Program-made: the position numbers and the translations under genes | In this document: one piece after another, positions 11,167 to 54,696 of the stretch | Numbering within the stretch: the stretch's first letter is position 1 | Layout: every line of letters begins with the position of its first letter | The notes under the pieces: generated by a model | What the model saw: only the letters and a program-made list of their open reading frames with translations | Told to the model about the DNA's origin: nothing | The model's database searches: none | From: a virus | Taxonomy: Duplodnaviria > Caudoviricetes | Virus record (IMG/VR): IMGVR_UViG_3300024180_000007 | Location: 1 to 56,414 of that record | DNA: 56,414 nucleotides | Direction: 5' to 3' (one strand)

Positions 11167-12627
11167 ATGGCAGTAAATGTAACACCAGGATTTGACTTGC
11201 AGCCAAGTGCGCAGCAAACTCCTTTATCAACAAACTACATAACTAACTTTGATTTCTTGAACCAATATCTTCCAGATGTTCATGAAAAGGAATTTGAGCG
11301 TTATGGAAACAGATCAGTAGCATCATTCTTAAGAATGGTAGGTGCTGAAATGCCTTCTAATTCTGACCTTATTAAATGGGCAGAACAAGGAAGATTACAC
11401 ACTAAATATCAAGCTTGTACATCAGCTGCGGCTGTTGGAGCTGATGATGGTGTTTGGACTATTCCAAATAACATTACTAACTTCAATCCAGCTTTAGGTG
11501 GAACAGCAAGTCAAGCAGCTTTAAGAGCTGGGCAAACTGTAATGATCTCTGATAACACACCAGGTTCAACTTTACAAAACAAAGGTATTATATCTGTAGC
11601 TCCAACAGCTGCTAATCCAAACAAGGTAACTATTGCTTACTACGAAGGTGGTGGACAAACAATGGCTCTTGGAACTTCATGTGATATATTTGTATATGGT
11701 TCTGAATTTGCAAAAGGAGTAAACGGAATGCAAGGTTCTTTAGAATCTGATGATTTCTTTTTCCAAAACAAACCAATCATTATCAAAGACAAGTATTCTG
11801 TTTCTGGTTCTGACATGGCTCAAATTGGATGGGTAGAAGTAACAAGTGAAGGCGGAGCAAATGGATACTTATGGTATTTAAAATCTGAACACGATACAAG
11901 ATTGCGTTTTGAAGATTACTTAGAAACAGCAATGATTGAAGCAGTACCAGCAGCAGCAGCATCTGGTGCAGGAGACTACTTACAAGGTACAGCAGCAGGA
12001 GCTTCTGTAGCAGGAGAGTCTGGATCTGAAGGAATTTTCTATGTAGTAGGAAACAGAGGTAACGTATTCGGTGGTGGAAACCCAACGACTTTAGCTCAAT
12101 TTGACACTATAATTCAAAGACTTGATAAGCAAGGAGCTATTGAAGAAAATGTTATTTTCGTAGATAGAGATTTTTCTTTTGATATTGACGATATGTTAGC
12201 TGCTCAAAATGCAGGATATGCAGGTGGTACTTCATATGGTTTATTTGATAATGATAAAGATATGGCGTTAAACTTAGGGTTTACAGGATTCCGAAGAGGA
12301 TATGACTTCTACAAGTCTGACTGGAAATACTTAAACGATCCTACAATGAGAGGTGGTATCAATGCAGGTAAAGTCAATGGACTTTTAGTACCAGCTGGAT
12401 CTACAACTGTGTATGATCAAGTATTAGGTAAAAACGCTAAGAGACCATTCTTACACGTTAGATATAGAGCTTCAGAAACTGAAGACAGACGTTACAAGTC
12501 TTGGATCACTGGTTCAGCTGGTGGAGCAAGAACAAGTGACTTAGATGCTATGGAAGTAAATTTCTTGAGTGAGAGAGCTGTATGTACTTTAGGTGCAAAC
12601 AACTTCTTCTTATTCCAAGATGCATAG
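11167..12627 (+). CDS. Major capsid protein
   Basis: 486 aa after the scaffold; IKWAEQGRLH, YGSEFAKG, IIIKDKYSVSGSD; followed by a strong terminator. Confidence 0.88.
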   Translation: MAVNVTPGFDLQPSAQQTPLSTNYITNFDFLNQYLPDVHEKEFERYGNRSVASFLRMVGAEMPSNSDLIKWAEQGRLHTKYQACTSAAAVGADDGVWTIPNNITNFNPALGGTASQAALRAGQTVMISDNTPGSTLQNKGIISVAPTAANPNKVTIAYYEGGGQTMALGTSCDIFVYGSEFAKGVNGMQGSLESDDFFFQNKPIIIKDKYSVSGSDMAQIGWVEVTSEGGANGYLWYLKSEHDTRLRFEDYLETAMIEAVPAAAASGAGDYLQGTAAGASVAGESGSEGIFYVVGNRGNVFGGGNPTTLAQFDTIIQRLDKQGAIEENVIFVDRDFSFDIDDMLAAQNAGYAGGTSYGLFDNDKDMALNLGFTGFRRGYDFYKSDWKYLNDPTMRGGINAGKVNGLLVPAGSTTVYDQVLGKNAKRPFLHVRYRASETEDRRYKSWITGSAGGARTSDLDAMEVNFLSERAVCTLGANNFFLFQDA

Positions 12628-15515: not shown

Positions 15516-18500
15516 ATGCCAATAGTTACAACAAATTTTATTGCAGGTAGAATGAATAAATCTGTGGATGAAAGACTTCTTCCGCCAGGTGAATACATTG
15601 ACGCTATGAATGTTCGTTTAGGTTCTACTGAATCTACTGAAATAGGAGCTGTAGAGAACTCAAAAGGAAATGAGCAACTAACTACAATACAGTACAATGG
15701 AGTTCCTCTAAGCTCTTCTGCTGTCTGTATAGGAGCATATGAAGATGGTGTTAGAGAAAATATTTATTGGTTTATTCATGATGGTTCAAACACTCAAAAT
15801 CCTAAAGGGGTAGTTGATTTAGTAGTTTCTTATAACACTACAAATGAGATAGTTAATTACCACGTAGTAACAGTAGATTTATTAAATTTTGATCCTAAAT
15901 TTTTAATTACAGGTGTTGATTTAATTGAAGACCTTTTGTTTTGGACTGACGATAAAAATCCTCCAAGAACAATAAATATAAATAGGAGTTATCCAGAGCC
16001 TATTTCAAACGTAGATCAAATTGTAGAAGAAGATATATCAGTGGTTGTAAAACCACCTGGTTTTGAAAGTGCTGTAGGGACACATGTTCCATTACCAGCA
16101 CCAACAATAAGTTTTTTAAATATTGCAGGAAATCAAAACTATATTGAAAACAGATTTTTATGTTTTGCTTATAGATATAGATATGATGATGGTCAATACA
16201 GTGCAACATCTTTATTTACCAATCCAGCATTTGTACCTAAGCCTTTTGCTTTTAGTACAAAAAATTATTGTAATGATGGGATGCTAAATCTTTACAATGG
16301 TGTAGAGATTAAATTTTCTACAGGAAGCTCAAGAGTAAAAGAAGTAGATTTATTATTTAAAGATACAAACTCTACTACTTTAAATGTAATTGAAAGATTT
16401 AAAAAAGAAGATTATGGTTGGTCAAATAATACAAATAAAAGCTACACATTTACTAATAACAAAATATATACAGTATTAGGTAATGATGAATTACTAAGAC
16501 AGTATGACAATGTTCCAAGGTTAGCAAAAGCTCAAACCATACAGGGAAACAGATTAATGTATGGTAATTATGTAGACGGATACAATATAACAAGACCAGA
16601 TGCAGATGGAAATAACATTGCTATTAACTATAATACAAGTTTGGTTAATACGCTTTTAGGTTTTTCTGAATTACCTTTTGGCTTACTAAATACTGGTGAA
16701 ACATATACAATAGATCCTAATCCAGGACAGAGCGAAAACATAGAGAACTCTAAGGTTACAATAGACTTAACAGCAATAGCTGATAAATTAAATGCTAATT
16801 CTTTAATAGGACTAACATTTGATTTTCATAGTGACAAAAGAGTTTTTTTTCCGTCTAACACTACTGCAGCTACAGAAAATATTGATTTTGAAAATCAACC
16901 ATTTACTCTTAATGTAAATATAACTTTAGATCAAGACTATGCAAGTCCGTATGATTTCTTTAACAGTCCTTTGTTTGCAGAACGTATTGGAACTATTCTT
17001 AATACAAACTTTCAACCTCTTGCTACAGCAGATCAAGGAAACTCATTGACAGATTTTTTTAATAATGAACTTTCTTCTCCAGCCATAGGAACATATCCTT
17101 TTGTTAAACACAATAGTAGTATTACAGACGCGACTAATCAGCAAGGTTTTACACTTTCTAATTTTGCTCCAGGATCAAATACGTGTGACATTCAAGTAAT
17201 TGCTATGGCTTTTCAGAGTACGGATTTAACTAATCCCTCTACTCCAGTAATAACTACGCTATATGAATACTTTAGGTTTGTTAGCGTTCAAGGATCATTT
17301 AATACAGATTTAGATACAGGTAGCTTACATAGTGATCGTGACTTTGAAACAGGTATTGTTTATAGCGATGAGTATGGAAGATCATCTACAGTTTTAGTTT
17401 CTGAATATAACACTGTATATGTAGAACCTGGTAATAGTGTTACAGCAAATAGTATACAAGTAGCGGTATCGTCAAGAGCGCCTTATTGGGCAGAACGATA
17501 TAAGTTTGTAGTGAAGCCAAGTAAAGGGGGTTATGAAACTATTTTTTCTAATTTTTATTATGTTAGACCAAGTGATAATATGGTATTTTTTAGGCTTGAA
17601 GGTGACAACGCAAATAAAGTTCAAAAAGGACAAACTCTTGTGGTTAAGGCTGATGTTAGTGGACCTTTAACAAGAGTAGAAAAATGTGAGATTTTAGAAA
17701 TAAGTGCAGAGCCTACTAATTTTTTAAATGACGTAAATGAATATGGTGAAGACTCTTTTCAACTTAAAGGTCTTTACATGTTAATTAAAAATCAAAATTT
17801 TGACATTGTTATTCCAGATGATTCTATTATTGAGTTTGGAATGGAGAGAAAAAGGAGTGCTGTAAGAGGATGTACAAATGCCAGAAAAATTGGGTATAAA
17901 TGTTTTACTACTGATCCTGATACAAATGTTACTACAAACTATGAAGTTCCAGGAGGTTCAGTTATTAAAATAAAAGTAAGAATGTTTCGTAATGATACAT
18001 TTAATGGAAATAGCTGTGAAGAAAGAGAGTGGTTATGGGAGCAAGAATATGTTGCAAGTAGAGATTATATTGATATGAGAAGATGGTGGATTGGAGATAA
18101 CATAAACCCAGCTCTTGGTTTGCCTGGAAATATTTCAGAAGAAACAGATATAATAAATGATACTACTTTAGCAACTCCATACTTTAGTGGTAATAGTGTT
18201 GCAAACAATATGTCGTGTACAACTTGGGCTGTAACATTTCAATGGATACAAAATAGTAGTCAAGGTATTAATGACCCACTGTACTTAGGTGTTTCGTCTG
18301 GAGTAAAAGGGTGTAATAGACCTTTTAATCCTGACAGAACTTCTGATTTAGAAGTTGAACTTATAGTTTTTAGAGCAAACACATTAATGGTATTTGAGAC
18401 AGAACCAAATGATGCAAATGCTGAATTATATTATGACGCATCTCAGTCTTTTCCTATATCTCAGCCTGATGGATTTCATATGTCGGGAGTTAATTCAGAT

Positions 18501-20303
18501 TTAGGAGACCAAAATCAAACTGCTTCACAAGACGCTGTAATAAATTTAAATTTTATAGATTGTTACACTTTTGGAAATGGTGTTGAAAGTTTTAAAATAA
18601 AAGATCAGTTAGCTGGAAGACCTTTTCAATTAGGTCAAAGAACATTAGCTGTATCTAATCAAGACTATAAAGAAGCTGATAGATTTGAAGGTATAACATA
18701 CAGTGGAATCTTTAGTAGTAATAGTGGTGTTAACAACTTAAATGAATTTAATTTAGGTTTAGTAAACTTTAAAGATTGTGAAACATCTTTTGGTCCAATA
18801 CAAAAAATGCATCCAAGAGAGACTGATATATTAGTTTTACAAGAAGATAGAATCACTTATGTTTTATCAAGTAAAAATTTAATAAGCGACAGTACAGGCG
18901 GAGGTGTTATAGCATCTATTCCTGAAATATTAGGAACTCAAATTGCACGTATTGAAGAATATGGTATTAGTTATAATCCAGAAAGTTTTGTTTCTCATGG
19001 TTATGATATGTTTTTTACTGATGTAAAAAGAAGTGCCGTAATAAAATTAAGAGGAACAAGCAGAAACAATGATTCTTTGGAAGTAATCTCTGATATGGGA
19101 ATGAGATCGTGGTTTAGAGATGAGTTTCATAAATCAATACAAACTCAAAAATTAGGAGGATATGATCCTTACATGGATGAATATGTTTTAGGAATGAATT
19201 GTAATGAAGTTCCTTTGCCACCAGAAATTTTTCAATGTGGATATAAATTACAAAGAAATAATTTAGCTGTTGGGGCGTCTAATGCAATTGTTAGCGAGAT
19301 AAGTTATGGTTCATTAATTGGCACAGCAGGATTTAGTTATAACGTTACTGCTGGTTCAATAATTATTTCTGTATTATGGAATGGAACAACAACAACAAGT
19401 TCAACACTAACAGGTTCTGGAACATTTACATTTGACAAAACTTTAAACAGTCCTGCTAATGCAGAAGTAACAATTACAGCTGTATCAACAGCATCATTTG
19501 TTGTAACAGCTAACTGTGTTGAATCAGAGTCTATAACGGTAGTAAAAGTAGTTATGAACTCTCCAAATGAAAGTGGAGAATTTATTCATGCTGAATACTT
19601 TTGGGAGGACAGTATAAATATTAGTCCAGTAGATTCAGATTTAGCAGAGTTTGGCAATAATAATTTAACAGCATCATACTATGACAGTCAAGTTGGGGTA
19701 AGATCATTGGGAGTTTTTCCATATGATGGTATAGATTTAACTATTAGATCTAATAAGATTAATTTTGATACATATGACTGGAACTATCCTAACGATAATT
19801 TTAAATATTTATCAAGCAATACTTTATACTCTAATAATCAAGCTGATATAGCTTCGTTGTTAGCAGCTGCAACTACAGTGCCAGACAGTTCGGTAACCAA
19901 TCCATCTGCAGGTCTGTATGAAACAACTATTAGTAGTTTGTCATTACCTACTGCAAATCAATATTTGTATTTAATATATGATTACAGATTAGTTAGCTGT
20001 CAAGAGTTTTGTTATGACGCAAGTTCAGCGGCATCAGCATGCTGTGAATGTGCATTTACATACACTGCTTATCCAAGTAGTACTGTATTTACCGTAGAAG
20101 CAAACGTTTGTAATCAACCTTTAAATGCTACATACTATCATTCAGGTAGCGGAACTTTGCCAGCATATGGAGATTTTGTATATTATGCATCAGATGGTGC
20201 AGTTGGTAGTAATTTAGGAGTAGGACTATATAAGGTAAGCGCAACAGATTATATAACAGTAAATCAATTTGGCTTAGTTACTGCGGTAACTACATGCCCA
20301 TAA
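15516..20303 (+). CDS. Tail stabilization/nozzle (muzzle) protein with appended Cys-rich domains
   Basis: N-terminal FIAGRMNKSVDERLLPPGEYIDAMNVR, LLFWTDDKNPPR, GNRLMYGNY, FGNGVES, YGISYNPESF, GGYDPY. Confidence 0.8.
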   Translation: MPIVTTNFIAGRMNKSVDERLLPPGEYIDAMNVRLGSTESTEIGAVENSKGNEQLTTIQYNGVPLSSSAVCIGAYEDGVRENIYWFIHDGSNTQNPKGVVDLVVSYNTTNEIVNYHVVTVDLLNFDPKFLITGVDLIEDLLFWTDDKNPPRTININRSYPEPISNVDQIVEEDISVVVKPPGFESAVGTHVPLPAPTISFLNIAGNQNYIENRFLCFAYRYRYDDGQYSATSLFTNPAFVPKPFAFSTKNYCNDGMLNLYNGVEIKFSTGSSRVKEVDLLFKDTNSTTLNVIERFKKEDYGWSNNTNKSYTFTNNKIYTVLGNDELLRQYDNVPRLAKAQTIQGNRLMYGNYVDGYNITRPDADGNNIAINYNTSLVNTLLGFSELPFGLLNTGETYTIDPNPGQSENIENSKVTIDLTAIADKLNANSLIGLTFDFHSDKRVFFPSNTTAATENIDFENQPFTLNVNITLDQDYASPYDFFNSPLFAERIGTILNTNFQPLATADQGNSLTDFFNNELSSPAIGTYPFVKHNSSITDATNQQGFTLSNFAPGSNTCDIQVIAMAFQSTDLTNPSTPVITTLYEYFRFVSVQGSFNTDLDTGSLHSDRDFETGIVYSDEYGRSSTVLVSEYNTVYVEPGNSVTANSIQVAVSSRAPYWAERYKFVVKPSKGGYETIFSNFYYVRPSDNMVFFRLEGDNANKVQKGQTLVVKADVSGPLTRVEKCEILEISAEPTNFLNDVNEYGEDSFQLKGLYMLIKNQNFDIVIPDDSIIEFGMERKRSAVRGCTNARKIGYKCFTTDPDTNVTTNYEVPGGSVIKIKVRMFRNDTFNGNSCEEREWLWEQEYVASRDYIDMRRWWIGDNINPALGLPGNISEETDIINDTTLATPYFSGNSVANNMSCTTWAVTFQWIQNSSQGINDPLYLGVSSGVKGCNRPFNPDRTSDLEVELIVFRANTLMVFETEPNDANAELYYDASQSFPISQPDGFHMSGVNSDLGDQNQTASQDAVINLNFIDCYTFGNGVESFKIKDQLAGRPFQLGQRTLAVSNQDYKEADRFEGITYSGIFSSNSGVNNLNEFNLGLVNFKDCETSFGPIQKMHPRETDILVLQEDRITYVLSSKNLISDSTGGGVIASIPEILGTQIARIEEYGISYNPESFVSHGYDMFFTDVKRSAVIKLRGTSRNNDSLEVISDMGMRSWFRDEFHKSIQTQKLGGYDPYMDEYVLGMNCNEVPLPPEIFQCGYKLQRNNLAVGASNAIVSEISYGSLIGTAGFSYNVTAGSIIISVLWNGTTTTSSTLTGSGTFTFDKTLNSPANAEVTITAVSTASFVVTANCVESESITVVKVVMNSPNESGEFIHAEYFWEDSINISPVDSDLAEFGNNNLTASYYDSQVGVRSLGVFPYDGIDLTIRSNKINFDTYDWNYPNDNFKYLSSNTLYSNNQADIASLLAAATTVPDSSVTNPSAGLYETTISSLSLPTANQYLYLIYDYRLVSCQEFCYDASSAASACCECAFTYTAYPSSTVFTVEANVCNQPLNATYYHSGSGTLPAYGDFVYYASDGAVGSNLGVGLYKVSATDYITVNQFGLVTAVTTCP

Positions 20304-23721: not shown

Positions 23722-26037
23722 ATGGCGGAAGATACATCAAGACCTTCAGGGGCAAATAAATATTCTATATATGCTCAAAGAAGTGTAGATAGCACTCAAA
23801 TGGACTGGAACGCAGCGTCTAAAGAATTAGTGACTGGGCTGCAAACCATACAGGCCGACAGAAATGCTCGTAAAGCTGCGATTGAAGAATCTACTCAGAA
23901 TGCTATAGAGCAGTTAAGCAAAGTTCCAGAAACTGGAACTCAAGACGCTGCATCTTTACTGATAAACGGTTCAAGTATGTCTGTAAAAGGTATACAAGAA
24001 CAAAACAATTTATTAAAGCGTGGTTTAATTAGCCCTTCAGATTATAAGCTGTATATGCAGCAACAAAAAAATGGTTATTCAAGTTTAAGTACGGCTGTAA
24101 AAGGTTGGGATGACTGGGCTGTTCAAGCAAAAGACAGATTACAAGCTGCAAAAGATGGCGGTGCAACAGCTTCAGAGTTAGAAATATTTTCAAATTTATC
24201 CGTTGAAGCTTTAGGTAATTTGAGAAATAAAAAACTATGGTCTAACCCTACTAACGGTAAAATGCAGTTAGTAACAATGGGTAAGAATACAAAAACTGGT
24301 TTATATGATGTAATGCCTGATTACGAAAAAAGAAAACAAGACTATCAAAATCCTAACCAGATAATGAATTTCATGAAGTTTGAACAGGATAGAATTGATG
24401 TTGATGATATGGCAACTGCTCAAACTGCTCAAATAGCAGACATTATACAAATAACTCTGGAAGGAGATGAGTATAAAAGACTGACAGGTGGTGGAAGACA
24501 GTTAAGCACAGAAGACTTTAGAAACCTTGGAGACTTTGGTACAGATGAAAATGGTAATGCAATAACATATGACATGTGGAAGTCTTCACAGTTAGATGCT
24601 ATGATTGGAGCGCCTGGAGATAAAAATAACATGAATGCGGCACAGGTTTTAACAAACTCTGGAAGATTTTTCTTTGCAGAAACAGAAAGTCAATTTGAGG
24701 AGAAACATCCAGGGATAGATAAAAAATATATGATTAAAGTGGATATGAGTTCAGGACAACCAGTTCCTGAAATGACTGATTCTCAGTACAAAGATGCTCG
24801 TAGACTTGCTGACATTGCAGTTGAATCACAAGTAAGTCATATAGAAAAAGTTGCAGAAGCAGCTAAATCAGCACAAGCACCACCACAACCAAATAGCACT
24901 ACAGTTGCAAAAAACAAACTGGATAGATCAATGGTTGGGTATATGGATGATGCAAATGCTATTGCGTCTGATGACGAATCAATATTTGAGGCTACAGCAC
25001 AAGATCGTATAGTAGCTTTAAATAAAGAAATGCAAAATTCTGGTGGTGATCCGAATAAAATGATTGATAGCATAACTCGTGATGACACATCTATTAAATT
25101 TACTTTAGCCGACGGAACAGTAGAAACAATACCAAGACTTGATGATAACGGTGTTCCAAGAAACGCTGAAGAGGTTGTTAGAGAGGTTTATAGATTGATT
25201 ACACCTCAAACATCTGAATATCAAAACTCATATAAAGACGCTGCAATATTATATAAAAAAGAGCCAGGCGGAGGTTTTAGAGCAACAGATAGAGATATGA
25301 CTGATATTGAGTTAATTGCAGCAGCTAAAGAAAAAAGAGCTGTGGCTAAATTGGATGCTGATGGAATTCCAAAAGAAATAGCTGAAACTAATGACCAAGG
25401 TGTTGCAACTGGTAAAATGATTCAAAATCCAGCATACGAACCAGCTCTTTCACAAGCGATTCTTAATGACACAGATAATATTACTGCTGATGAAAAAAAG
25501 GCTGTAAAGAAAAGAATATTAAAGAATATAACTGGAGAGAAATACAGAGCTTTAGCTCCTCTTCCAGCTCTAAAACAAAACACTGCTATAATTGGCGCTA
25601 AAATGGTAGACGGTGATGCAGTGGGAGCTACTGGTACAGAGCTTATCGAAGAAAAAGTAGGTGATAAATTATCAGGACTTAATGCTGGTTCTATTGGTGA
25701 CGATCCAGTAGAAGTTAATGATGTTTTAAGTCAGGTTATGAATGATTACCTTCCAGACGAAATAAAGGGTGGTGCTAAAGTTATGTTTAAAAAAGACAGA
25801 ATTGATGATAGTAAATGGGTTATTGAAGTTTCTTATTTTGATAGAGCTGGAGTACAGCAATCACTTCCTCCAATATATCCAGAGGTAGGAGCTATGCTGA
25901 ATACGAAAGGAGCAACACCTTCTCAGTTAAACGAAATGATGCATAAAGCAGCACAAGAAGTTTTAAACGAAGAAAACGCAAGACTTACAACAAGAAATCA
26001 AAGAGGTACAGGTAAAAACCGAAAAAAGTTTAATTAA
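23722..26037 (+). CDS. Internal virion (ejection) protein
   Basis: 771 aa, helical; TAATG overlap with the giant gene. Confidence 0.7.
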   Translation: MAEDTSRPSGANKYSIYAQRSVDSTQMDWNAASKELVTGLQTIQADRNARKAAIEESTQNAIEQLSKVPETGTQDAASLLINGSSMSVKGIQEQNNLLKRGLISPSDYKLYMQQQKNGYSSLSTAVKGWDDWAVQAKDRLQAAKDGGATASELEIFSNLSVEALGNLRNKKLWSNPTNGKMQLVTMGKNTKTGLYDVMPDYEKRKQDYQNPNQIMNFMKFEQDRIDVDDMATAQTAQIADIIQITLEGDEYKRLTGGGRQLSTEDFRNLGDFGTDENGNAITYDMWKSSQLDAMIGAPGDKNNMNAAQVLTNSGRFFFAETESQFEEKHPGIDKKYMIKVDMSSGQPVPEMTDSQYKDARRLADIAVESQVSHIEKVAEAAKSAQAPPQPNSTTVAKNKLDRSMVGYMDDANAIASDDESIFEATAQDRIVALNKEMQNSGGDPNKMIDSITRDDTSIKFTLADGTVETIPRLDDNGVPRNAEEVVREVYRLITPQTSEYQNSYKDAAILYKKEPGGGFRATDRDMTDIELIAAAKEKRAVAKLDADGIPKEIAETNDQGVATGKMIQNPAYEPALSQAILNDTDNITADEKKAVKKRILKNITGEKYRALAPLPALKQNTAIIGAKMVDGDAVGATGTELIEEKVGDKLSGLNAGSIGDDPVEVNDVLSQVMNDYLPDEIKGGAKVMFKKDRIDDSKWVIEVSYFDRAGVQQSLPPIYPEVGAMLNTKGATPSQLNEMMHKAAQEVLNEENARLTTRNQRGTGKNRKKFN

Positions 26038-29000
26038 TGGATAAGTTTACAGAGTTATACAATTACTTGAAGGAAGAAGGATTAACAGATTTATCTGCTG
26101 AAGAATTTAAAGCTGAGTATGCAGCAGGTACTGCTAAAAACACAGAGTTATATTCTTATTTAAAATCTGAAAAATTAACAGATTTAGATGCTGAAAAATT
26201 TAATATAGAGTATTTTCCTGGTGTTGAAAAAAAAAATCCAAACGACATTTCTCCTTCAAACACTCCAGAGGTTATTACGGACTCTACTACCGAAACTCCA
26301 GAGGTCGTGGATACTTCTTTGGATACCTCCACACTTGAAAAACCTTTAGATGAAAATACTGTAGTAGATGTACAGGAAGAAGACACTACAGTTACTGAGT
26401 TCCCTGCATACGATCCGCGTGAGCAGGGTAAGGAAATAAATGCAAATCCAATTACATATAATTCCAGCGACTCTCAATTTGACAAATCATTAGCTTTTGT
26501 AACTAAAGATTTAATAGACAGAGAAGAAAGTGAAGTAGTCAACAGAATGAAATATCATTTTGAAGATTATGGTTTTGACTTTGAACAAGGCGGTGGATTT
26601 ATGAGTGGATTAGATGGTATGAAAGTTACGTCTAAAGATGATCCAACTAAAAGCATAAACATTAATCTTGATCCTGTTTTTGGAGATTTTTTTGGTGGTG
26701 AATCAGGACCTGCAAAAGAACTTAGAAAGTTTTTAAAAGAAAACAGAAGAACTGACCAGAGAATGGAAAGTCTGGATGCTTCTTATGATAAAAACAGAAA
26801 AAAATATTTTAGTGCTGAAGCAACTAAAGAAGACATTCAAGCTGTAAGAAATTCAGCAAAGAATCTAAATTCTAATTATAAAGTTTATCAGGACAGAAAA
26901 GCTATTCATGAAGCAGAAATAGACGCTTTATTAGGACAACCTAAAGAAATACAAAATACTCCTGAGTGGGAGTTAAAATATCAGCAAACTTTATTAGCAG
27001 GAAAAAGATTAAAACAATTTAAGAATCAATTAACAACAAATTATAATAGTTATAAAAAATTTGAAGGTCAAATAAACTCATCTGTTGGTAATTACATTGA
27101 CATGAAAGAAGCGGACGATAGTACGTTTTTTGGTGGTTTAGTAAATGATATTGTTGGGCCTGGTGTCAGTGATGTTCTTGCAGCTGTTTGGGGTGCTGGT
27201 GTTGATGGGTTTTATAAAGCGGCGCAGTTTATTTACGAAGATTTTGGGATGAATGCTGAGGAAAAAAAAGATCGTTACATTGATATTGCAAGAGATCTTG
27301 GGTATCCAGTTCCTGAAAATATAGAAGACGATGCTGTTTATACAAAGTGGTTAGAAAACTTGCAGGATCAAGGGTTTGATGATGATAAAGCAGAAGGTGA
27401 ATTTTCAATTAGTACGTTTTCTAAAGAAACAATGGAACGACTTGAAGCTGATGGTTTTGATTTAAGTAAACCAACTGTAAATGGACAATACTTCAATAAA
27501 AATCAGTCAGGATTAAATAGATTTTTAAATGGACAATACATTGACCTTCCTGACTATGCTTATGATAAAACAAAAGGTGAAAGACTAAAACGATTAGTAT
27601 TAGATCAAGAGGTAAAAGAAAATAAAAATCCACAAAAAGATTTTATAAAAAAATACTGGAACGAAATTGTTTCAGCTGATGACATTTCAGATGAAAAATA
27701 CGCAAAACAATCTAATAGTAACATTGTTTACACTGGACTTTCTGGTCTTGCTAAATCACTTCCATCTGTATTAACTTCTTTTGCGTCCAGAGGAAAAATA
27801 GCTCCAGCTGTTGGATTAGGAGCAGCAAAAAGAAATTTAATTGCAAAAGGATTAGGCTTAACAACAAGAGGTGGCATTGCTCAAACAGTTTCATTTGCTA
27901 TGCTCCAAGCTGAAGCAATGAATGTTGAAATGAACAATGACCCTGATTTTAAGTATGTTACTGAATCAGAAAGAAAGAACATTGTTATACCTACTGCTAT
28001 CACAGTTGGTATATTAGAGCGTTATGGTTTTAGAAATATAGCAGGTAACAAAGCTATAATGACTGGTTTAATGAACAAGGTAACTAATATGTTACCTAAA
28101 AACGCAACTGCAGCAATGTTTAAAAACCAAATGAACAAACTTGTTCAAAGTAATATTGCAAAAGGAATTTTTTCAAACACAGCTGTAAAAACTGCTGCGA
28201 CTTTTACTGGTCGAGTTACTAAAGCTGCTTTAGCAGAAGCAGAAACAGGTGGTCTTCAGCAAATAGCTGAAATGGGATACAAGGATGTATGGAATAACAT
28301 GAATAATAAAGACATGTTTGATCAACCTGAATTATGGACTAAAGAATTTTGGGGAACAGTTGGACATGCTGCAGCTGCTGAGGCTGTTGGTGGTTTTGTA
28401 ATGGGTGTTCCAGGAGCAGTAATTGCAGCGGCTAAAAACAAGACTTCCGATTTACTATCTGATGATCTTGTTGAAATGTTTGACATGATAAGAAATGATG
28501 AAATAACTGTAGAAGCTTATCAAACACAGTTAGACTTAGGCGTTTCTAATGGTAAGATAACATCAGAGCAAGCATCAAAACAGATGTTAGATTTTCAAAC
28601 ATTAAGTGGAGCTGCTAACACTCTTCCAAGTGACTTAGATGTTAACTCAAGAAAAAAAGGATTAGTTTTAATTTTTGAGCAGCAACAATTAGAAGCTGAA
28701 ATGGAAAAAATGAATAAGAATTTAAATTCTTATAAAACCAGAGAAGCCAGAGTTGAACAAATAAAAACCGAAATTGGACAGCTTGGGACTAATCAAGCTC
28801 AAGCAAATACTAATTTAAAAAATGAGACTGAAGGAATTCAAGAATCTGTTTTAGTAACAGAAGAAGATGCCACAAAATCTTTACAAGATAAGGGGGTGCA
28901 AAACCCTACAGTTGAACAAATTAAAACCGAACAAGATGCCCTACAAAAGCAAAGCACAACGAGCCTGGATGCACAAGAATCTTCCAGAAGTGGCGAAACG

Positions 29001-32000
29001 GTGGGACAAAGCGTACCCAACATCCAGTCTACCCAACAGAGCAAAAGCGAAACCGAAACTCAAAACAGGGAGAAGACCCAAGAGGAAGTAAGTCAAGAAG
29101 AGCAAAATGATATAGACGATTTCTTTGGTGATGAAGTTTTAGATGACGTTGAAACCTCTTCAGATAATTTATCTATAAATAGAAAACAAGTAGAGGGAGA
29201 TACAGAAATAGAGAACACAACTTTAGCATCAGCTGTAGTAAATAAAGCTAAAAAAGCTGCACGTGCAATTGCAAAAATAGCACCTGAAGTAAAAATAGTT
29301 TTACACGACACACAAGCAGAATACGAAAAGTATGCAACAAAAGGTAGTCGTGGGTATTACAATCCAAACAGTAAAGTTATACATATTAACTTAACTAAAG
29401 CTAAAGGAAATACAGTGGCACACGAAGTTTTTCATGCGGTGTTTTTAGATAAAATATCAGGTGGAGATGTTCAAGCTCAACAAGCAGCTTTAAAATTAAT
29501 AACTTCTGTAAGAAAAACCTTACCAGCTGAATCTTTATTAGCTAAAAGAATAGATAATTTTGCTAAAAATTATGATGAAAATATTAAAAATGAAGAGAAG
29601 TTAGCAGAATTATTCTCTTTGATGGCCACTGAATATAAAACATTAAAGAAGCCAGGGAAGAACAAAGTTATAGAATTTATAAGATCAATGGCGGCTAAGT
29701 TAGGCGTTACAATACCTGGTGGTTTTGGAAAAACAGACGAGTCAGTTATAGATTTTATGAACGCATTTTCTAAAAAAGTTAGAACTGGTACGGAAATAAC
29801 AGAAGGTGATGTAGATGTTTTAAATAAAATAGATGAAGAGTTAGATGTAGAGCAAGAACAGGGTGAATCTGGGCAAGTTGGTACTTTTACTTTTAAAGGT
29901 AGAGAATCAAAAGCTCCAGACATTAATACAGATACCAGGTCTTATGCAAAAAACATTATTCAAAAAGATTTACAAGATTATAATGGGCAAAACTTTGTGA
30001 CTAACATGTATGATTTTACTAATGCTGGACCAACTGACATTGGAGCTGGTATTGTATTAGACTTGTATGGAGGTAAAAATTATGTTGCTGATATGATGGA
30101 AAAAACAGGAACTAAATTAGGAGAGGTTTCTAATGTTGCTGCTTTTAACACTAAAGGTCAAGCTGAAGGATTTATTAAAAACGCTATAGATGGAAATGCA
30201 AATTTATTTGCTCCACACGTAGGAACTAAAGAAGGTTCTTGGCAGTTTCAACAAAATATATTTGAGCAGTTAACTGAAAAATTATTAGATAATAATATAC
30301 TAACTAATCAAGAGTTAATTGAAAGTTTTAATGATGGTTTAAAAAGTAAAAATGGTCAAAGTGCATTAAATATATTTAATAAAAAATATAAAAAAAACCT
30401 AACTAATTTAAATGAATTTAAAGATAATCCTAAAAGATTAGTAGAGCTTTTAGATATTGATAATAATTATTCGCCAGATTTAAGAAAAATATTAAACGAT
30501 AAAATAGCTTCAAACAAAAAAGTTCAAGCTGCTTTAGGTATTAAAAATAAAATTCAATTTGCTGAGTTATTAGAAGACCCTATGAATGTAGGAAGTCAAA
30601 AATTTGATATCATAGGTCTTGTTGAATTTGATAATACTACTTTTAAAACTCCTTCAAGACCAAAGAAAGGAGATGCTGATTATCATCCTTCTTTTGCATG
30701 GACTGTAAAAGCCAAAATAAAAGCTATTGTTCAACCTACAAATTTTTATCAAAGCACTGAGGTTACCGATTCTTATACAAAATTTAACAAGTCAGGAGCA
30801 GTAGTTTCTACAAGAGAAAATACTAAAGACTTTAAGTCGTCTAATGTATCCAGTAGTGCAGGTTCAGGGCCTAAAGTAGCCACTGTAAAATCTGAAATAA
30901 GACAAGGTAGAGAGCAATCTACTGAACAGCAAGTAAAAGATCAAACTGGAATGCCAGCAAGTGGGTTCTATAGCGCTCAAGCTATGGTGTCAGACATCCA
31001 ACGTCAGTTTAATAGAATTGGTCCAGGATATGTAGCTAAAAGAGCTAAACAAGGAGCTTATGGGGGCGGAGGCGGAGTGTTTGTTGTTGGTCCTAATAAA
31101 CGTATTGTAAAAAATCCTACACGAAAAGGACGTCAGCAGGCAATGGATAATGAAAACGATTTGCTTAGAATTATAATAGCTGGCCGAGAAGAAGGAGGTT
31201 TTGAAGATGCAGCTATAAAAGATTATTTAAAGAGAAGAAAAAGAAAGGTTGATGGTAAAACAGCAAGTGCTTATAGTGCAAAAGAAATTAATGCTGCATT
31301 CAAAGTTTTAGAAAGCGAAGCTTTTGATTCTTACATGTTTAGAGAATACCCTACAAGTTTTAATGACATAAAAGGTGGTTTTCTGGCTGGTCTTAAATTA
31401 ATGAAAGATGTTGATACTTACTATAAAAAATTAGTTGAAAAGAATAATTTAATTAAAGACAGAGTTGCAAAAAACAGAAAGACAAAACAAGTTCCTTTAA
31501 CTGACGAACAAATTAATTTGAAAGTTTTAGATTACTTTATGTCGCTTCCAGGATACAAAAGCGTAGGGGTAAAAGGCAAAAGACAGACATCCCAGCAGCT
31601 TGCTATGGAACGTGATATGTTAAACATACTGCTTCCTGATCCATTAAAGGCTAATCCTAAACGTATTGCAGCAATAAACAGAAGAATAAAAAACATAAAG
31701 TTCACTGAAAGAAACCTTAAAGGTGTTCAGAGAGCTTTAAGAAATTACATAAGAACAGTACTACCAAGGGATTTATATACTAAAAAAGAAATAACTGATT
31801 TAATTGATAAAGTGAATAGAGTAAACGCTACAAACTTTGAATCAGTTAAAGATGAGGTTTTTAAAATAGTTACTACAAAAACAAACAAAAGACTTGAGAG
31901 TGTTTTATTTAAGATGCTTGATAAAGCTTATACCACTATTCAAAGCGGTAGATTTAAAGGTGTTAAAATTGATAATGAAACTCGTAAAAAGTTAAATCGT

Positions 32001-34928
32001 ATCAATAAATTAGTAGTGAACCCTAAGTCAACTGGCGATCAAATAATGGAAGCTAATGAAAAACTTTTGAAGTTATATAACCAAGTTTCTACAGAAGAGA
32101 TAGTAGACGAAAAAGATAAAAAAAGTCGTAAGACTAAATCTACATTTAGTAAAAGTGATTTGCAGCAGATGGCTGAAATTACATTAGCTATGCAGATAAA
32201 CACATCTTTTACTCAAGACATGAATGACTCTAATAAAACTACTCAGTTAAGCTCAGTAATCAATAGCTTAAAACAAATAGAAGAGTCTGGGAAAGCTAAT
32301 TTTGAGTACGAATTACTACAAGACGCTATACAATACAGAGAGAATGAGAGAGCTGTATACAAGGATATGACAGGTATAGATATTGATGCAAAACAATCAC
32401 TTATTGACCAAGGTATACCTGAGAATGAAATTACTGAGTTTATGGTAAACGAAGAGTTTCAAAAAATTAAAAAAGATGTTTCACTTGATGCTAAAGAATC
32501 AGGTGGCTTAAAAGTAGAGGGTGTTATAAAAAGATTCAAAGGTTCACTAAATAGTTTAGCTACTAAAATTGAGCAAGGGTTATTTGGAAGTGCAGAAGAT
32601 ATGACAGGTTTGATAGACAGAATATCTACACAACCAGGAGAAATATTTGAAGGAGCAACTCAAGAACTTACACAGAAAAAAATACGTTCTTCTTCAAGAG
32701 TTTATAAGTCAAGAATGATTGGACAGCAATTAAGTCTTTCTAATAAAATGACAGAATTATTTGGCAACAAATGGGTTAACATAAACAGAAAAAACTCTCA
32801 GATGACTGAATCTATTGTTCGTAGTAAGGTCAAAGATGATTTACTTCAAGGACAATTAAAAGAAGCTCAAGAAAATAAAACTTTAAAGAAAGGAGAACGA
32901 ACAGCTTTAATTAATTCAATACAAAAGGAGATTGATCAAAACACAGTAAACCTAAGTCAAAACCAATTGCTTTATTATTATTCACAGATGCAAGATCCTT
33001 CTTTAGAAGGGAGCATGATAAACACTTTTAATCCTACAAGAAAGGGAAATATAGTGTTTGACAATGAATTTAAGAGTAGAATAGAGCAAGAGATATCAGA
33101 TAAATTAGATGAAAGATTAAAAGACTTATCTGAGTGGATGATAAAAGATTATTACCCATCTTCTTATGACCACTACAACAATACTTACAAGAAAATTTAC
33201 AGGACTGATATGCCTTGGAATCAAAACTATGCTGGTCGTGTGTATCGCCAAAACGAAAACGACATGGAAGCCTTAGATTTATTAGCCGACAGTCAATCAT
33301 GGATTACAAACGTTGGCTCTGCCAGTACTAAAGTAAGAGTTCAAAATACTAATCCAATAGAAAAAGTAGATGGTGTAGACGCATTACTTAATTACACCAA
33401 AGACATGGAGTATTTTGCTGCATATGGTGTTGCTATAAGAGATATAAATAAAATATTTTCATCACCAATGATAAAAGAAACCATTAAAGAAAAATTTGGT
33501 TCTACTATTTACACATACATTGATGATTCTATTAAAAAAATAGCAAACAAGGGAATACAATCACAAAGACAAATACAAGTAATAAATACCTTTAATAATA
33601 CATTTTTATTATCTCGTTTAGGTTTAAACCCAACACTTATACTAAAACAAATGACATCTTTCATCACGTATGGAAATGACATTGGTTATATAAATTGGGT
33701 TAAAAATGCTGCCATGAGTACGACTCAAGCAAAAAAATTAGTAAACGAAGTTTTAGACAACTCAATTGTTCTACAGGACAGGTACGGACAAACAATTAAA
33801 AGAGCTGTAGAGACATATGCTGATGAAAAGTTTGAAAAAATGAATGGTGGTCTTTTAGAGCGTTTTGGATTAACAAACGCAAAGCAAGACAAGATTAGTA
33901 AAATTTTAATGTGGACCACAATGACAGGGGATAAAGGTGCTATACTTGTTGGTGGTGTTCCAAATTACTTATACTATAAAAATGAATTTAAAAAGAAAAA
34001 CCCTGAAGCTTCAGAACAAGAGGTTATTGATCATGCAATAAAAAAGTTTGAAGCTGACACATTAAGAACTCAACAGTCATCTGATTTACAAGATAAAGAT
34101 TACTTTCAAACTAAAGGGGCGCTTATAAGAGCCTTTAATATGTTCTTGACAACTCCAAAACAATATTTCCGTAGAGAAATTATTGCAGCAAGAAACATGT
34201 ATAGAATTGTTAAAAGTGGCGGTAAGCAGGGTAAAGGTGTTATAAAAGATAATGGAGAATTAAATTACTGGAAAAGTTTAGGTAAATCTGCAAGAAGTTT
34301 AGCAGTGTATCATGTGGTGATGCCAGTGGTTTTTCAGTGGGTGTCTGCTGGATTGCCAGGTCTTTTAAGAGGGATGAATGATGAGGATAAAAAAGATTTA
34401 GGAATAGCCGCTCTTTTAGGTAACTTAAATGCTTTGTTTATTATAGGAAAAGTAGCCGAGACCCTTAAAGATGTTGCGTTAGGTAAGCCTTGGGCAAAAA
34501 CTCCATCAACAATTCCAATTTTAGGGCAAACATCACAGTTGGCAGATTTATACATGCGTGCGCAAAAAGCAAAAGGTGTAAAAAAAGAAGAAGCTATGAA
34601 TAAATTCATGGCAGAAGCAATTGCCCTTACAGGTATACCAGCACCACAATTAAGAAAGTTTATGAAAAACTTTTCTGAAATTGGTGACTCAAAATCTATG
34701 GGTGAGTTTATATTAAAACTTTTTAATTTTTCTGAATATCAGCAAAGAGGAGGTAAGAAAGGTAAGGGTCTTAAATTAACAAAAGCTGAACTAAAAAGAT
34801 ATTTTCCAGAACTATATCCAGACGTTCAAGAGGACGGACCATTGGAGGATTTTCTTAAATTACAAAAAGAAGCTAAAGCAGAACAAAAACGTTTAAGAAA
34901 AGAGCTTCTTGATCAAATGTATAAGTAA
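26037..34928 (+). CDS. Giant internal virion (polyvalent-type) protein with HExxH metallopeptidase-like motif
   Basis: 2963 aa; RGYYNPNSKVIHIN...AHEVFHAVF (HEVFH at 29421-29435) with downstream EEKLAE; N-terminal tandem repeat; helical C-terminus. Confidence 0.8.
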   Translation: MDKFTELYNYLKEEGLTDLSAEEFKAEYAAGTAKNTELYSYLKSEKLTDLDAEKFNIEYFPGVEKKNPNDISPSNTPEVITDSTTETPEVVDTSLDTSTLEKPLDENTVVDVQEEDTTVTEFPAYDPREQGKEINANPITYNSSDSQFDKSLAFVTKDLIDREESEVVNRMKYHFEDYGFDFEQGGGFMSGLDGMKVTSKDDPTKSININLDPVFGDFFGGESGPAKELRKFLKENRRTDQRMESLDASYDKNRKKYFSAEATKEDIQAVRNSAKNLNSNYKVYQDRKAIHEAEIDALLGQPKEIQNTPEWELKYQQTLLAGKRLKQFKNQLTTNYNSYKKFEGQINSSVGNYIDMKEADDSTFFGGLVNDIVGPGVSDVLAAVWGAGVDGFYKAAQFIYEDFGMNAEEKKDRYIDIARDLGYPVPENIEDDAVYTKWLENLQDQGFDDDKAEGEFSISTFSKETMERLEADGFDLSKPTVNGQYFNKNQSGLNRFLNGQYIDLPDYAYDKTKGERLKRLVLDQEVKENKNPQKDFIKKYWNEIVSADDISDEKYAKQSNSNIVYTGLSGLAKSLPSVLTSFASRGKIAPAVGLGAAKRNLIAKGLGLTTRGGIAQTVSFAMLQAEAMNVEMNNDPDFKYVTESERKNIVIPTAITVGILERYGFRNIAGNKAIMTGLMNKVTNMLPKNATAAMFKNQMNKLVQSNIAKGIFSNTAVKTAATFTGRVTKAALAEAETGGLQQIAEMGYKDVWNNMNNKDMFDQPELWTKEFWGTVGHAAAAEAVGGFVMGVPGAVIAAAKNKTSDLLSDDLVEMFDMIRNDEITVEAYQTQLDLGVSNGKITSEQASKQMLDFQTLSGAANTLPSDLDVNSRKKGLVLIFEQQQLEAEMEKMNKNLNSYKTREARVEQIKTEIGQLGTNQAQANTNLKNETEGIQESVLVTEEDATKSLQDKGVQNPTVEQIKTEQDALQKQSTTSLDAQESSRSGETVGQSVPNIQSTQQSKSETETQNREKTQEEVSQEEQNDIDDFFGDEVLDDVETSSDNLSINRKQVEGDTEIENTTLASAVVNKAKKAARAIAKIAPEVKIVLHDTQAEYEKYATKGSRGYYNPNSKVIHINLTKAKGNTVAHEVFHAVFLDKISGGDVQAQQAALKLITSVRKTLPAESLLAKRIDNFAKNYDENIKNEEKLAELFSLMATEYKTLKKPGKNKVIEFIRSMAAKLGVTIPGGFGKTDESVIDFMNAFSKKVRTGTEITEGDVDVLNKIDEELDVEQEQGESGQVGTFTFKGRESKAPDINTDTRSYAKNIIQKDLQDYNGQNFVTNMYDFTNAGPTDIGAGIVLDLYGGKNYVADMMEKTGTKLGEVSNVAAFNTKGQAEGFIKNAIDGNANLFAPHVGTKEGSWQFQQNIFEQLTEKLLDNNILTNQELIESFNDGLKSKNGQSALNIFNKKYKKNLTNLNEFKDNPKRLVELLDIDNNYSPDLRKILNDKIASNKKVQAALGIKNKIQFAELLEDPMNVGSQKFDIIGLVEFDNTTFKTPSRPKKGDADYHPSFAWTVKAKIKAIVQPTNFYQSTEVTDSYTKFNKSGAVVSTRENTKDFKSSNVSSSAGSGPKVATVKSEIRQGREQSTEQQVKDQTGMPASGFYSAQAMVSDIQRQFNRIGPGYVAKRAKQGAYGGGGGVFVVGPNKRIVKNPTRKGRQQAMDNENDLLRIIIAGREEGGFEDAAIKDYLKRRKRKVDGKTASAYSAKEINAAFKVLESEAFDSYMFREYPTSFNDIKGGFLAGLKLMKDVDTYYKKLVEKNNLIKDRVAKNRKTKQVPLTDEQINLKVLDYFMSLPGYKSVGVKGKRQTSQQLAMERDMLNILLPDPLKANPKRIAAINRRIKNIKFTERNLKGVQRALRNYIRTVLPRDLYTKKEITDLIDKVNRVNATNFESVKDEVFKIVTTKTNKRLESVLFKMLDKAYTTIQSGRFKGVKIDNETRKKLNRINKLVVNPKSTGDQIMEANEKLLKLYNQVSTEEIVDEKDKKSRKTKSTFSKSDLQQMAEITLAMQINTSFTQDMNDSNKTTQLSSVINSLKQIEESGKANFEYELLQDAIQYRENERAVYKDMTGIDIDAKQSLIDQGIPENEITEFMVNEEFQKIKKDVSLDAKESGGLKVEGVIKRFKGSLNSLATKIEQGLFGSAEDMTGLIDRISTQPGEIFEGATQELTQKKIRSSSRVYKSRMIGQQLSLSNKMTELFGNKWVNINRKNSQMTESIVRSKVKDDLLQGQLKEAQENKTLKKGERTALINSIQKEIDQNTVNLSQNQLLYYYSQMQDPSLEGSMINTFNPTRKGNIVFDNEFKSRIEQEISDKLDERLKDLSEWMIKDYYPSSYDHYNNTYKKIYRTDMPWNQNYAGRVYRQNENDMEALDLLADSQSWITNVGSASTKVRVQNTNPIEKVDGVDALLNYTKDMEYFAAYGVAIRDINKIFSSPMIKETIKEKFGSTIYTYIDDSIKKIANKGIQSQRQIQVINTFNNTFLLSRLGLNPTLILKQMTSFITYGNDIGYINWVKNAAMSTTQAKKLVNEVLDNSIVLQDRYGQTIKRAVETYADEKFEKMNGGLLERFGLTNAKQDKISKILMWTTMTGDKGAILVGGVPNYLYYKNEFKKKNPEASEQEVIDHAIKKFEADTLRTQQSSDLQDKDYFQTKGALIRAFNMFLTTPKQYFRREIIAARNMYRIVKSGGKQGKGVIKDNGELNYWKSLGKSARSLAVYHVVMPVVFQWVSAGLPGLLRGMNDEDKKDLGIAALLGNLNALFIIGKVAETLKDVALGKPWAKTPSTIPILGQTSQLADLYMRAQKAKGVKKEEAMNKFMAEAIALTGIPAPQLRKFMKNFSEIGDSKSMGEFILKLFNFSEYQQRGGKKGKGLKLTKAELKRYFPELYPDVQEDGPLEDFLKLQKEAKAEQKRLRKELLDQMYK
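26043..26213 (+). repeat. Tandem protein repeat at the N-terminus of the giant protein
   Basis: TELYNYLKEEGLTDLSAEEFKAEY / TELYSYLKSEKLTDLDAEKFNIEY; DNA copies of ACAGAGTTATA and ATTAACAGATTTA. Confidence 0.85.
26227..26338 (+). other. Candidate programmed -1 frameshift/slippage site (A10) and 33-codon trans-frame tail
   Basis: GAA AAA AAA AAT; the -1 frame is closed by TGA at 26225-27 and then reads SKRHFSFKHSRGYYGLYYRNSRGRGYFFGYLHT* to 26338. Confidence 0.5.
28936..29091 (+). CDS. Nested +1-frame gene: 51-aa basic protein of the MP(F/Y)KSKAQR type
   Basis: MPYKSKAQRAWMHKNLPEVAKRWDKAYPTSSLPNRAKAKPKLKTGRRPKRK*; A-rich leader; locally raised GC. Confidence 0.7.
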   Translation: MPYKSKAQRAWMHKNLPEVAKRWDKAYPTSSLPNRAKAKPKLKTGRRPKRK

Positions 34929-47459: not shown

Positions 47460-48260
47460 GGAATTATACTTTAATATTACTATAACTTGTCAATAACTTG
47501 TCAGTAACTCCTGTTGTCCAGCACTCAACTCTCTTTATATACTTTATACAAACTCTCTAATACTTTTACTTGCGTATTACTAACATGTTAACTGGAAAGC
47601 TTTAACTATGTTTTGTTTGGGGTGTGTGACATCCGTACTGGGGTTAAGAGAAGGGTCTCTCCTTCTTCTTTTCTTTCCCCCTGTGGGGGGATGGTAGGCA
47701 GCACTGGAGCAGAGCAGCTAATCAAAGCTGTAATCAACAGCAGTACAGCACAGATACTGCAGCTATTACTGGAGCTGCAGCACTGGAGCTGGAGCTGGTC
47801 ATAAGGAATCCTGAAACAATCCAACAAAAAAGTTTGAAAAGTTCTGACAAGCTGAGAAAAAAACGACTTTCCTCAGGCCAACCACAACTGTATAAGCTAC
47901 TATAGCCCTAAACTTATAAGTGTCTGAACCCAAAAAAAAATTTAATAATATTTTTTATTTTGATCCCTTAATTTATGTCAGTAAAATGTAAATAACTTAT
48001 TTGTGTCAGTAAAATGTCAGTAACTAATTTTTGTATTTTAAAGCGTGTTTGTTATCGACATTCTTATGACAGTTATTGTGTCGACTTTTTTTTGCTAACT
48101 TATTAGTTCTTAGTTCTTTATTCTTTTAATGTCGATAATGTCAATAATAAATAGAATAATAATATATAAAAAAAGAAGAAGAATAGAAATATATATAAAG
48201 AGTAAGTGGGGAACTTTTGTCGACATTCGACATTGCATTTTTATTTTAGTATAAATATAT
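47460..48260. other. Non-coding divergence region; candidate genome terminus/packaging site and origin
   Basis: About 800 bp between divergent operons, with a GC-rich CTGGAGC repeat block, phased A-tracts and a TGTC array. Confidence 0.5.
47975..48234. repeat. Iteron-like TGTC array with AT-rich core (copy 2)
   Basis: TGTCAGTAAAATGT twice; ATGTCGATAATGTC at 48129; inverted GACATTCG at 48222. Confidence 0.55.
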
Positions 48261-51662: not shown

Positions 51663-51692
51663 ACGAGATTTTTAACCCTCAAAAAAAAAGAA

Positions 51693-54679: not shown

Positions 54680-54696
54680 ACTACAAAAAAAAAGAT

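Follow-up and report, generated by a model that had tools for sequence, protein, structure and literature searches.

The virus record IMGVR_UViG_3300024180_000007 was analysed over its whole stretch of 56,414 nucleotides, which is referred to below as the window (56.4 kb, about 32% G+C, CheckV completeness 87%). The subject of the analysis is the gene of a giant virion protein, located at 26037..34928 on the plus strand and encoding 2963 amino acids in the 0 frame according to the list of open reading frames (ORFs) and the translation. Close to its start, this gene contains a run of ten adenines (A10), behind which a short second frame, shifted by -1, is open. We consider it very probable, judging by the comparison of homologous genes, that the one gene gives rise to two proteins, the 2963-amino-acid protein and an N-terminal isoform of about 100 amino acids, and that this trans-frame product is real and functional, whatever the route by which it is made.

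The A-run and the -1 frame in the window

The first 63 codons of the gene (26037..26225, plus strand) encode an N-terminal domain that would be common to both products. It consists of two tandem repeats (residues 5-28 and 36-59, identical at 17 of 24 positions), directly followed by the A10 run (26227-26236), the putative slippage site, in the context GAA AAA AAA AAT. In the -1 frame, a TGA (26225-26227) abuts the run upstream and closes that frame. Downstream of it, 36 sense codons (26228-26335) encode a tail with a basic start of the KKK type and a subsequent aromatic/Gly/Arg segment (alignment A4), which is terminated by a second TGA (26336-26338); all these features lie on the plus strand. 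The tail peptide of the window is KKKSKRHFSFKHSRGYYGLYYRNSRGRGYFFGYLHT. Between 26228 and 26335 the -1 frame contains no ATG, GTG or TTG, and since this ORF is startless and closed just upstream of the run, it is reachable only by shifting from the N-terminal domain. With one extra A, the predicted product of the window comprises 64 + 36 = 100 amino acids. The original prediction, made from this sequence alone, had described the A10 run after the tandem repeat, the TGA just upstream and the startless -1 frame, and all of them are present as claimed.

The A10 run is the longest homopolymer in the window, which has 59 A-runs of seven or more. Four other runs are A9: 5337-5345 (inside the large-terminase gene), 47932-47940, 51681-51689 and 54685-54693. 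The -1 open stretch adjoining the A10 run ranks 15th among the 1858 -1 stretches of the window, and 175 of 14848 positions in the -1 frame (1.2%) have at least 36 open codons downstream. Third positions of the 0 frame over the overlap are G or C in 13 of 33 codons, compared to 21.4% across the 14884 codons of the window genes (binomial P 0.015); the earlier remark that this proportion looks high for the genome is thereby borne out. None of the seven internal GAN codons follows a T-ending codon, the window-wide frequency being 770 of 1939 (39.7%). By our estimate, an A10 run is expected from composition alone roughly 0.8 times per window. Given this expectation, the observation in a single genome is at most suggestive, and the comparison of homologs carries the weight. 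On that comparison, chance was rejected as the origin of the run and the open frame.

Conservation of the run and constraint on the -1 frame

Two scans of viral contigs revealed 71 loci, and 49 loci of the second scan include the gene start. The comparison between lineages was based on 54 genes, including four GenBank phage records, which form 26 clusters at 60% identity. A run of A9-A11 is found at the equivalent domain boundary in 46 of the 49 loci and in 25 of the 26 clusters (A10 in 21, A9 in two, A11 in one, and mixed A11/A10 in one). Every lineage that carries the run has 9-11 adenines, and none has seven or eight. In all ten homologs with 67-96% identity that were read through the gene start, GAA AAA AAA AAT and the -1 stop occur at the identical codon. 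In relatives that are 32-47% identical, this domain boundary is likewise occupied by A10 or A11, with other residues on either side, and the A-run together with an open aromatic -1 frame is conserved down to 22-32% protein identity. The conservation of both elements in homologs, by which the original prediction was to stand or fall, was thus found. Among phages with a name or an accession, the run is A10 in Flavobacterium phage elemoA, with a -1 tail of 46 codons, in Tenacibaculum phage Gundel_1 (33 codons) and in gp101 of Cellulophaga phage phi40:1 (27 codons), and A11 in the uncultured MW202828.1 (28 codons).

The residues around the run vary (EKKN, VKKK, LKKK, IKKK, PKKK, QKKK and SKKKI), and the flanking wobble base is invariably A. 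The lysines of the run are all encoded by AAA, even in lineages where this codon makes up 35-60% of lysine codons. If the residues and the codon usage of the gene itself are given, a run of such length has a probability of 0.007-0.58 per lineage. These data bear on the simplest alternative, according to which there is no trans-frame product at all, the run is a conserved lysine patch in AT-rich code, and the nucleotide conservation is caused by an RNA or DNA element or by recent recombination. For the window itself such a reading is comfortable enough, as EKKN and the gene's own codon usage would give A10 about 56% of the time; it also agrees with the fact that the +1 frame is open too, and with the presence of a second, even more conserved block in the giant gene, so that mosaic conservation does occur. 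However, it leaves unexplained the all-AAA lysines in lineages that prefer AAG as well as the properties of the -1 frame described below. We regard it as improbable.

The openness of the frames was assessed in 38 distinct regions by keeping the protein fixed and redrawing synonymous codons 2000 times per region. The -1 open length of the window was matched in none of its 2000 shuffles. The observed -1 open length was reached in at most 0.8% of the shuffles in 24 of the 38 regions and in at most 5% in 28 of them; by cluster, 11 of 19 had values of 0.05 or less for all members. In the same test, the +1 frame gave values of 0.05 or less in five of the 38 regions and below 0.01 in none, i.e., it is about as open as expected. 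By our reasoning, a hydrophilic linker has no T at the second codon position and so loses its +1 stops; in the -1 frame, by contrast, stops would often arise ahead of Asp and Glu codons if T-ending codons were not avoided. The -1 peptides are also more similar to each other than the 0-frame peptides encoded by the same bases, with a mean pairwise identity of 42% vs. 35% (703 pairs). Neither the excess openness, which is specific to the -1 frame, nor the higher identity of the -1 peptides is accounted for by a lysine patch without a trans-frame product.

A shared pattern can be noted in the tails: a basic start, then an aromatic residue followed by Gly, and aromatic-[FLI]-[FI]-Gly a short way ahead of the stop. 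Two invariant glycines are shared by all 25 tails compared (alignment A4). In the window, both are encoded by GGA (26279..26281 and 26321..26323, plus strand), the first G being the wobble base of a rare 0-frame codon, ACG in the former case and TTG in the latter. The 0-frame wobble base that falls on these glycines is G each time (50 of 50 cases); the 0-frame codon is ACG, TCG, TTG, GTG or GCG in 45 cases and ATG in the other five. In the same genes, G-ending codons represent just 2-22% of the codons for the glycine-overlapping 0-frame residues. The use of rare G-ending codons in all 45 cases where the choice was free is likewise left unexplained if no trans-frame product exists. The 0-frame residue after each glycine-overlapping codon varies (D, E, V, A, G), without any effect on the -1 glycine.

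Synonymous differences among seven non-redundant full-length homologs drop to 0.25-0.5 of expectation over codons 56-100 or so, a fall that coincides exactly with the stretch from the run to the -1 stop. The 25-codon segment from codon 66 has 34 synonymous differences compared to 108 expected, which is the sixth-lowest value in the giant gene, and in the core of the overlap (0-frame codons 78-94, 26268..26318, plus strand) there is nearly zero synonymous change among homologs that are 67-96% identical. Both signs of dual coding, a -1 frame open beyond expectation and purifying selection, are found here. Judged from these comparisons of sequences, the run, the open -1 frame and the -1 peptide are all under selection.

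A conserved -1 ORF could also be an independent overlapping gene with internal initiation, and a nested gene with its own ATG is indeed found elsewhere in the giant gene (28936..29091). However, the -1 ORF of the window offers not one of the codons ATG, GTG and TTG, the ORF begins at the run in all lineages, and short ORFs in public databases join the tail to the N-terminal domain. In view of the lack of a start codon within 26228-26335, an independent overlapping gene was rejected, and its probability is negligible.

A profile of the tail matches the window record at one place only (E 1.4e-8), and it also matches four of five control records. One clade (L036, L037 and L041, with the gene start at 1501; 44-46% identity) has kept the N-terminal repeat domain and lacks the lysine run. 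The -1 frame of this clade is full of stops, and a search of its three records with the tail profile gave no match; one of these records has a length of 89 kb and is rated complete by CheckV. The explanation without a trans-frame product leaves this joint loss of run and tail unexplained as well, and no RNA structure is supported. The clade represents a natural loss that can be used for comparison.

Routes to the -1 frame and the predicted isoform

For the route to the -1 frame, we propose programmed slippage of RNA polymerase and give this proposal about an even chance. The polymerase would realign on the T-run of the template and add one A, and ordinary translation of the resulting A11 mRNA would read the tail in the -1 frame. 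Most expression would lead to the 2963-amino-acid virion protein, and a set fraction would end up in the -1 frame. According to excerpts of Atkins et al. 2016 (PMC5009743), slippage of bacterial RNA polymerase has a threshold of roughly nine bases, and the hybrid is 9-10 base pairs long. A run that is held at 9-11 and never at 7-8 fits this threshold and this hybrid, which favours the transcriptional route.

The same isoform might instead be made by the ribosome, either by a programmed -1 frameshift on A_AAA_AAA or by sliding on lysine codons, in which case the mRNA would remain A10. The heptamer is in phase with the 0 frame in 25 of 25 lineage representatives, a modestly stable hairpin is located right after the run in three of 11 lineages (z-score -1.7 to -2.0), and contigs from RNA libraries contain A10 only, which speaks weakly for this route. 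Low-efficiency shifts without stimulators are known in tailed phages, as stated in part of the review by Atkins et al. 2016 (PMC5009743). Since some phage shifts need no stimulator, the lack of one weakens the ribosomal route and does not remove it. On the other hand, a heptamer would suffice for the ribosome, yet fewer than nine adenines are found in no lineage, exactly ten are found in 21 of 25 clusters, and the flanking wobble bases are held at A. There is no consistent RNA structure downstream of the run in 11 lineages (z-score +0.51 in the window, and -1.96 to +1.35 in the ten others) and none upstream of it in the window (z-score -0.19), and neither a Shine-Dalgarno-like nor a hairpin stimulator is evident. 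In excerpts of Koutmou et al. 2015 (PMC4363877), sliding of the E. coli ribosome needed A11, with little of it at A9 or A10. We therefore favour RNA polymerase slippage and treat the ribosomal route as the less likely of the two. The original prediction of a 2963-amino-acid and a roughly 100-amino-acid protein from one gene has gained comparative support; the -1 frameshift named in its title may be ribosomal or transcriptional, and the 9-11 adenines favour RNA polymerase.

Run length could also differ at the DNA level. In such a contingency tract, phage subpopulations with A9, A10 and A11 would coexist under ordinary decoding, and the tail would be read from A11 genomes. A length out of frame is indeed present in the records of four cultured Cellulophaga phages of the Pachyviridae (phi13:2, phi18:3, phi46:3 and phi19:3), which have A9 at the run. 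The N-terminal domain is consequently annotated there as a separate ORF of 87-103 amino acids (2501-2776 in L075, phi13:2; 1812-2135 in L078, phi18:3; 1815-2135 in L079 and L080, phi46:3 and phi19:3), and the giant ORF, now headless, begins 11 bases further downstream. The addition of one A joins the N-terminal domain to the giant frame, and the addition of two joins it to a tail with the shared motif. Presumably, the four genomes date from pyrosequencing, which miscounts homopolymers. The A9 is either such a miscount or the mark of a genome dependent on slippage for its full-length protein. The region is nearly identical in all four records, so they do not count as independent cases of a contingency tract.

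ORFs of both shifted forms are also held in public assemblies. A search among short proteins with the 67-residue N-terminus revealed P0003 and P0005 (clusters of three and four members), which are 100-amino-acid ORFs equal to exactly the predicted -1 product, and P0002, P0004 and P0007, which are ORFs of 90-103 amino acids equal to the +1 product. The short public ORFs P0021-P0024 are equal to the -1 product. A search with the tail profile against 1.84 billion representative proteins gave four matches only, all of them ORFs of 77-106 amino acids ending in the tail; the tail thus appears to occur in no ordinary protein family. Run-length variants, real or erroneous, do occur in public assemblies. 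The assemblies with shifted ORFs are short contigs that may come from DNA or RNA libraries, which limits their value for a contingency tract. Moreover, 46 of the 49 metagenomic loci keep the run with the N-terminal domain continuing into the 0 frame, and a genome locked at A11 would be without a virion protein that the phi40:1 and phi18:3 records note as structural by tandem mass spectrometry (MS/MS). Decoding from DNA-level variants is, in our view, quite improbable.

One of the 46 loci, L056 (approximately 1017-1700), has A10 and a typical tail, and about 70 codons after the run its giant frame is shifted once more. This second shift is either an assembly error or the sign of a broken gene.

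The isoform proposed under RNA polymerase slippage would have about 100 residues and consist of a four-helix repeat domain, a basic KKK(R/S) stretch and an aromatic/Gly/Arg tail of 20-45 residues with a nearby stop. A model of the N-terminal domain constructed using AlphaFold2 with a 23-sequence alignment has four helices, arranged as two helix-loop-helix repeats, with a mean predicted local distance difference test score (pLDDT) of 84.5. The fold search with this model gave no PDB match (best E 8.6), and its best matches in BFVD are the N-termini of large uncharacterized proteins of marine viruses (E 0.019). Family searches with the N-terminal domain found nothing significant. The tails begin with KKK plus Arg or Ser and continue with aromatic and glycine residues among which arginines are interspersed. 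A family search with the tail, including a Pfam scan of 26228-26335, found nothing significant, the best hit being PSA_CBD (E 0.13, below the cut-off). In a single-sequence AlphaFold2 model of P0003, the tail forms three beta strands at a pLDDT of 43-48, which is too low to use. The prediction of a complex of two copies of the N-terminal domain (alignment A2) scored 0.00, which counts neither way.

Such an isoform would keep the N-terminal docking domain of the giant protein, and the 2900-residue body would be swapped for a basic, aromatic anchor, possibly a beta hairpin. As a guess, it may help in assembly or packaging, compete with the giant protein, or act on a host target. The roles offered in the original prediction, namely nucleic-acid binding, self-association and control of the ratio of packaged cargo, gain no support from these data and are not contradicted by them. 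A more far-reaching version of RNA polymerase slippage, which we consider rather unlikely, is a stutter that sets a ratio. There would be a ladder of A9-A12 transcripts, and a phage could live with A9 (provided that the four Cellulophaga records are correct), A10 or A11 in its genome, the only consequence being a different ratio of giant to short protein. The isoform would then be a previously unseen factor, directed at virion assembly or at the host and shared by three or more groups of flavobacterial phages at the family level.

Several points weigh against a functional isoform produced by slippage of RNA polymerase. The joint product of the per-lineage run probabilities, 1.1e-20, overstates their independence, since the lineages are related. 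The openness of the -1 frame is not individually significant in eight of 19 clusters (P 0.07-0.52). By our reasoning, part of the aromatic/Arg/Gly composition arises automatically when a Ser/Thr/Asp/Glu linker is written in T-ending codons. L051, which was excluded from alignment A4, and MW202828.1 carry the run, but their tails are without the shared motif. Both run and tail are lost in the clade mentioned above, so the isoform is dispensable there. In the record of phi18:3, the N-terminal ORF gp122 has no MS/MS note, whereas the giant gp123 has one. In contigs from the RNA libraries X15 and X16, which have a depth of 3-6x, the run reads A10 and contains no inserted base; since contigs of low depth drop minority variants, this says little. 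The in-phase A_AAA_AAA heptamer, present in every run, keeps a ribosomal -1 shift among the candidates. The contigs of one sequencing run break at 26210/26227; such breaks are frequent along the stretch and have no bearing on slippage.

Genomic setting and comparison with known systems

The giant gene is the last and largest of a podovirus-type structural block that contains the large terminase (5115-7364), the portal (7361-9796) and, according to PHROG matches, genes of the category "virion structural protein" (11167-12627 and 15516-20303). It comes after a gene of 771 amino acids, whose stop overlaps its start (TAATG, 26036-26040); this overlap suggests coupled translation of the two genes. 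The nearest named relatives by terminase are Flavobacterium elemo phages, Cellulophaga phages, Tenacibaculum phage Gundel_1 and an uncultured freshwater podovirus. A near-identity DNA search against phage records gave no match to the window, and searches with the full giant protein found no relatives in Pfam, PHROG, NCBIfam or PDB sequences. In cultured phages, its distant homologs bear the annotation "structural protein", and the GenBank records of phi40:1 gp101 and phi18:3 gp123 carry the note "experimental MS/MS proteomics".

An HExxH motif (HEVFH) is present in the giant protein at residues 1129-1133 (29421..29435). It lies in the only stretch of this protein that matches the "structural protein" of Flavobacterium elemo phages (residues 1083-1259, 37.6% identity) and is kept in the 32%-identical homolog of L013. 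This stretch may be a metallopeptidase-like domain; no family model matched it.

The second conserved block of the giant gene, located at about 28810-29000, is its most synonymously constrained part, with five differences vs. 133 expected. Nucleotide identity in this block is 93-100% between clades that are otherwise about 78% identical. An ORF of 51 amino acids with its own ATG (28936..29091, plus strand) is nested here in the +1 frame of the giant gene. It is open in eight of eight homologs checked and in nine loci of another check, and it has no Pfam or PHROG match. In L013, a distant relative, a homolog of 62 amino acids is a free-standing gene (11181..11369), which starts three bases after the stop of the giant gene. 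From its distribution, 28936..29091 would seem to be a small gene, nested in the window and standing on its own elsewhere.

If the isoform is real, it would be a hidden conserved protein in widespread phages of marine and freshwater Flavobacteriia, namely Pachyviridae, Pervagoviridae, Elemovirus and many uncultured lineages. For several of them a host is in culture, which makes the prediction directly testable. A phage of Bacteroidota would thereby offer a clear example from nature of gene expression that makes use of homopolymer slippage. Slippage would also explain why the gene appears in four Cellulophaga GenBank records as two pieces, a small N-terminal ORF and a giant ORF without its head. 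Products of this kind are missed by gene callers. Taken together with the nested gene 28936..29091, a ratio-setting stutter, if true, would mean that new small genes are overprinted repeatedly in the low-complexity linkers of giant virion proteins. No published description of slippage or frameshifting at this gene in Cellulophaga or Flavobacterium phages was found in searches on these phages and on slippage at large, which did not extend to subscription papers and supplements; the words "frameshift" and "slippage" are both absent from the flavophage paper PMC8776804.

Phage lambda G/GT and other frameshifts of tail assembly chaperones resemble the proposed event in being conserved recoding within the structural module of a tailed phage, by which two proteins that share their N-terminus are made in a fixed proportion. 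The difference is that G/GT recoding gives an extension and lies between the genes of the tail tube and the tape measure, whereas here the product would be truncated at residue 64 in a podovirus-type module. A frameshift of the tail-assembly-chaperone type was rejected for this gene, since it ends the structural block and the shift truncates a 2963-amino-acid product at residue 64. In Shigella spa13 and related type III secretion genes, as described in part of Atkins et al. 2016 (PMC5009743), early slippage sets the proportion of two products of a secretion/injection machine, and this is the likeness to the present gene. However, the C-terminal extension is needed for function there, whereas the body would be replaced by a short tail here.

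The -1 ribosomal frameshift of E. coli dnaX (A_AAA_AAG plus stimulators) resembles the case described here in its heptamer of lysine codons and in a truncated isoform with a shared N-terminus, but no stimulator is evident here, and the run has 9-11 bases, not seven. Potyvirus P3N-PIPO was discovered through reduced synonymous variation. It differs in belonging to an RNA virus, where the viral RNA-dependent RNA polymerase slips at about 2%, whereas the giant gene belongs to a double-stranded DNA phage and has a longer run. According to Atkins et al. 2016 (PMC5009743), P3N-PIPO is a startless short ORF within a large one, reached by one added A through polymerase slippage at GA6, and in this it is similar.

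In Thermus thermophilus dnaX (tau/gamma), a run of nine A/T lets RNA polymerase add bases, as given in excerpts of the same review (PMC5009743). The likeness, in the terms of these excerpts, is that the long product is encoded in one ORF and that shifted mRNAs lead to a shorter protein with the same N-terminus and a nearby out-of-frame stop. Unlike Thermus dnaX, the gene in question is a phage gene, and its product is a giant protein of the virion. The trans-frame part, at 19-46 residues, is long, and it is conserved to the point of having invariant residues; constraint is confined to the -1 frame, and the short form would keep about 2% of the long one. In kind, the proposed event is programmed slippage leading to a short isoform with a coincident N-terminus, and its closest counterparts are Thermus dnaX and, for the startless ORF, P3N-PIPO.

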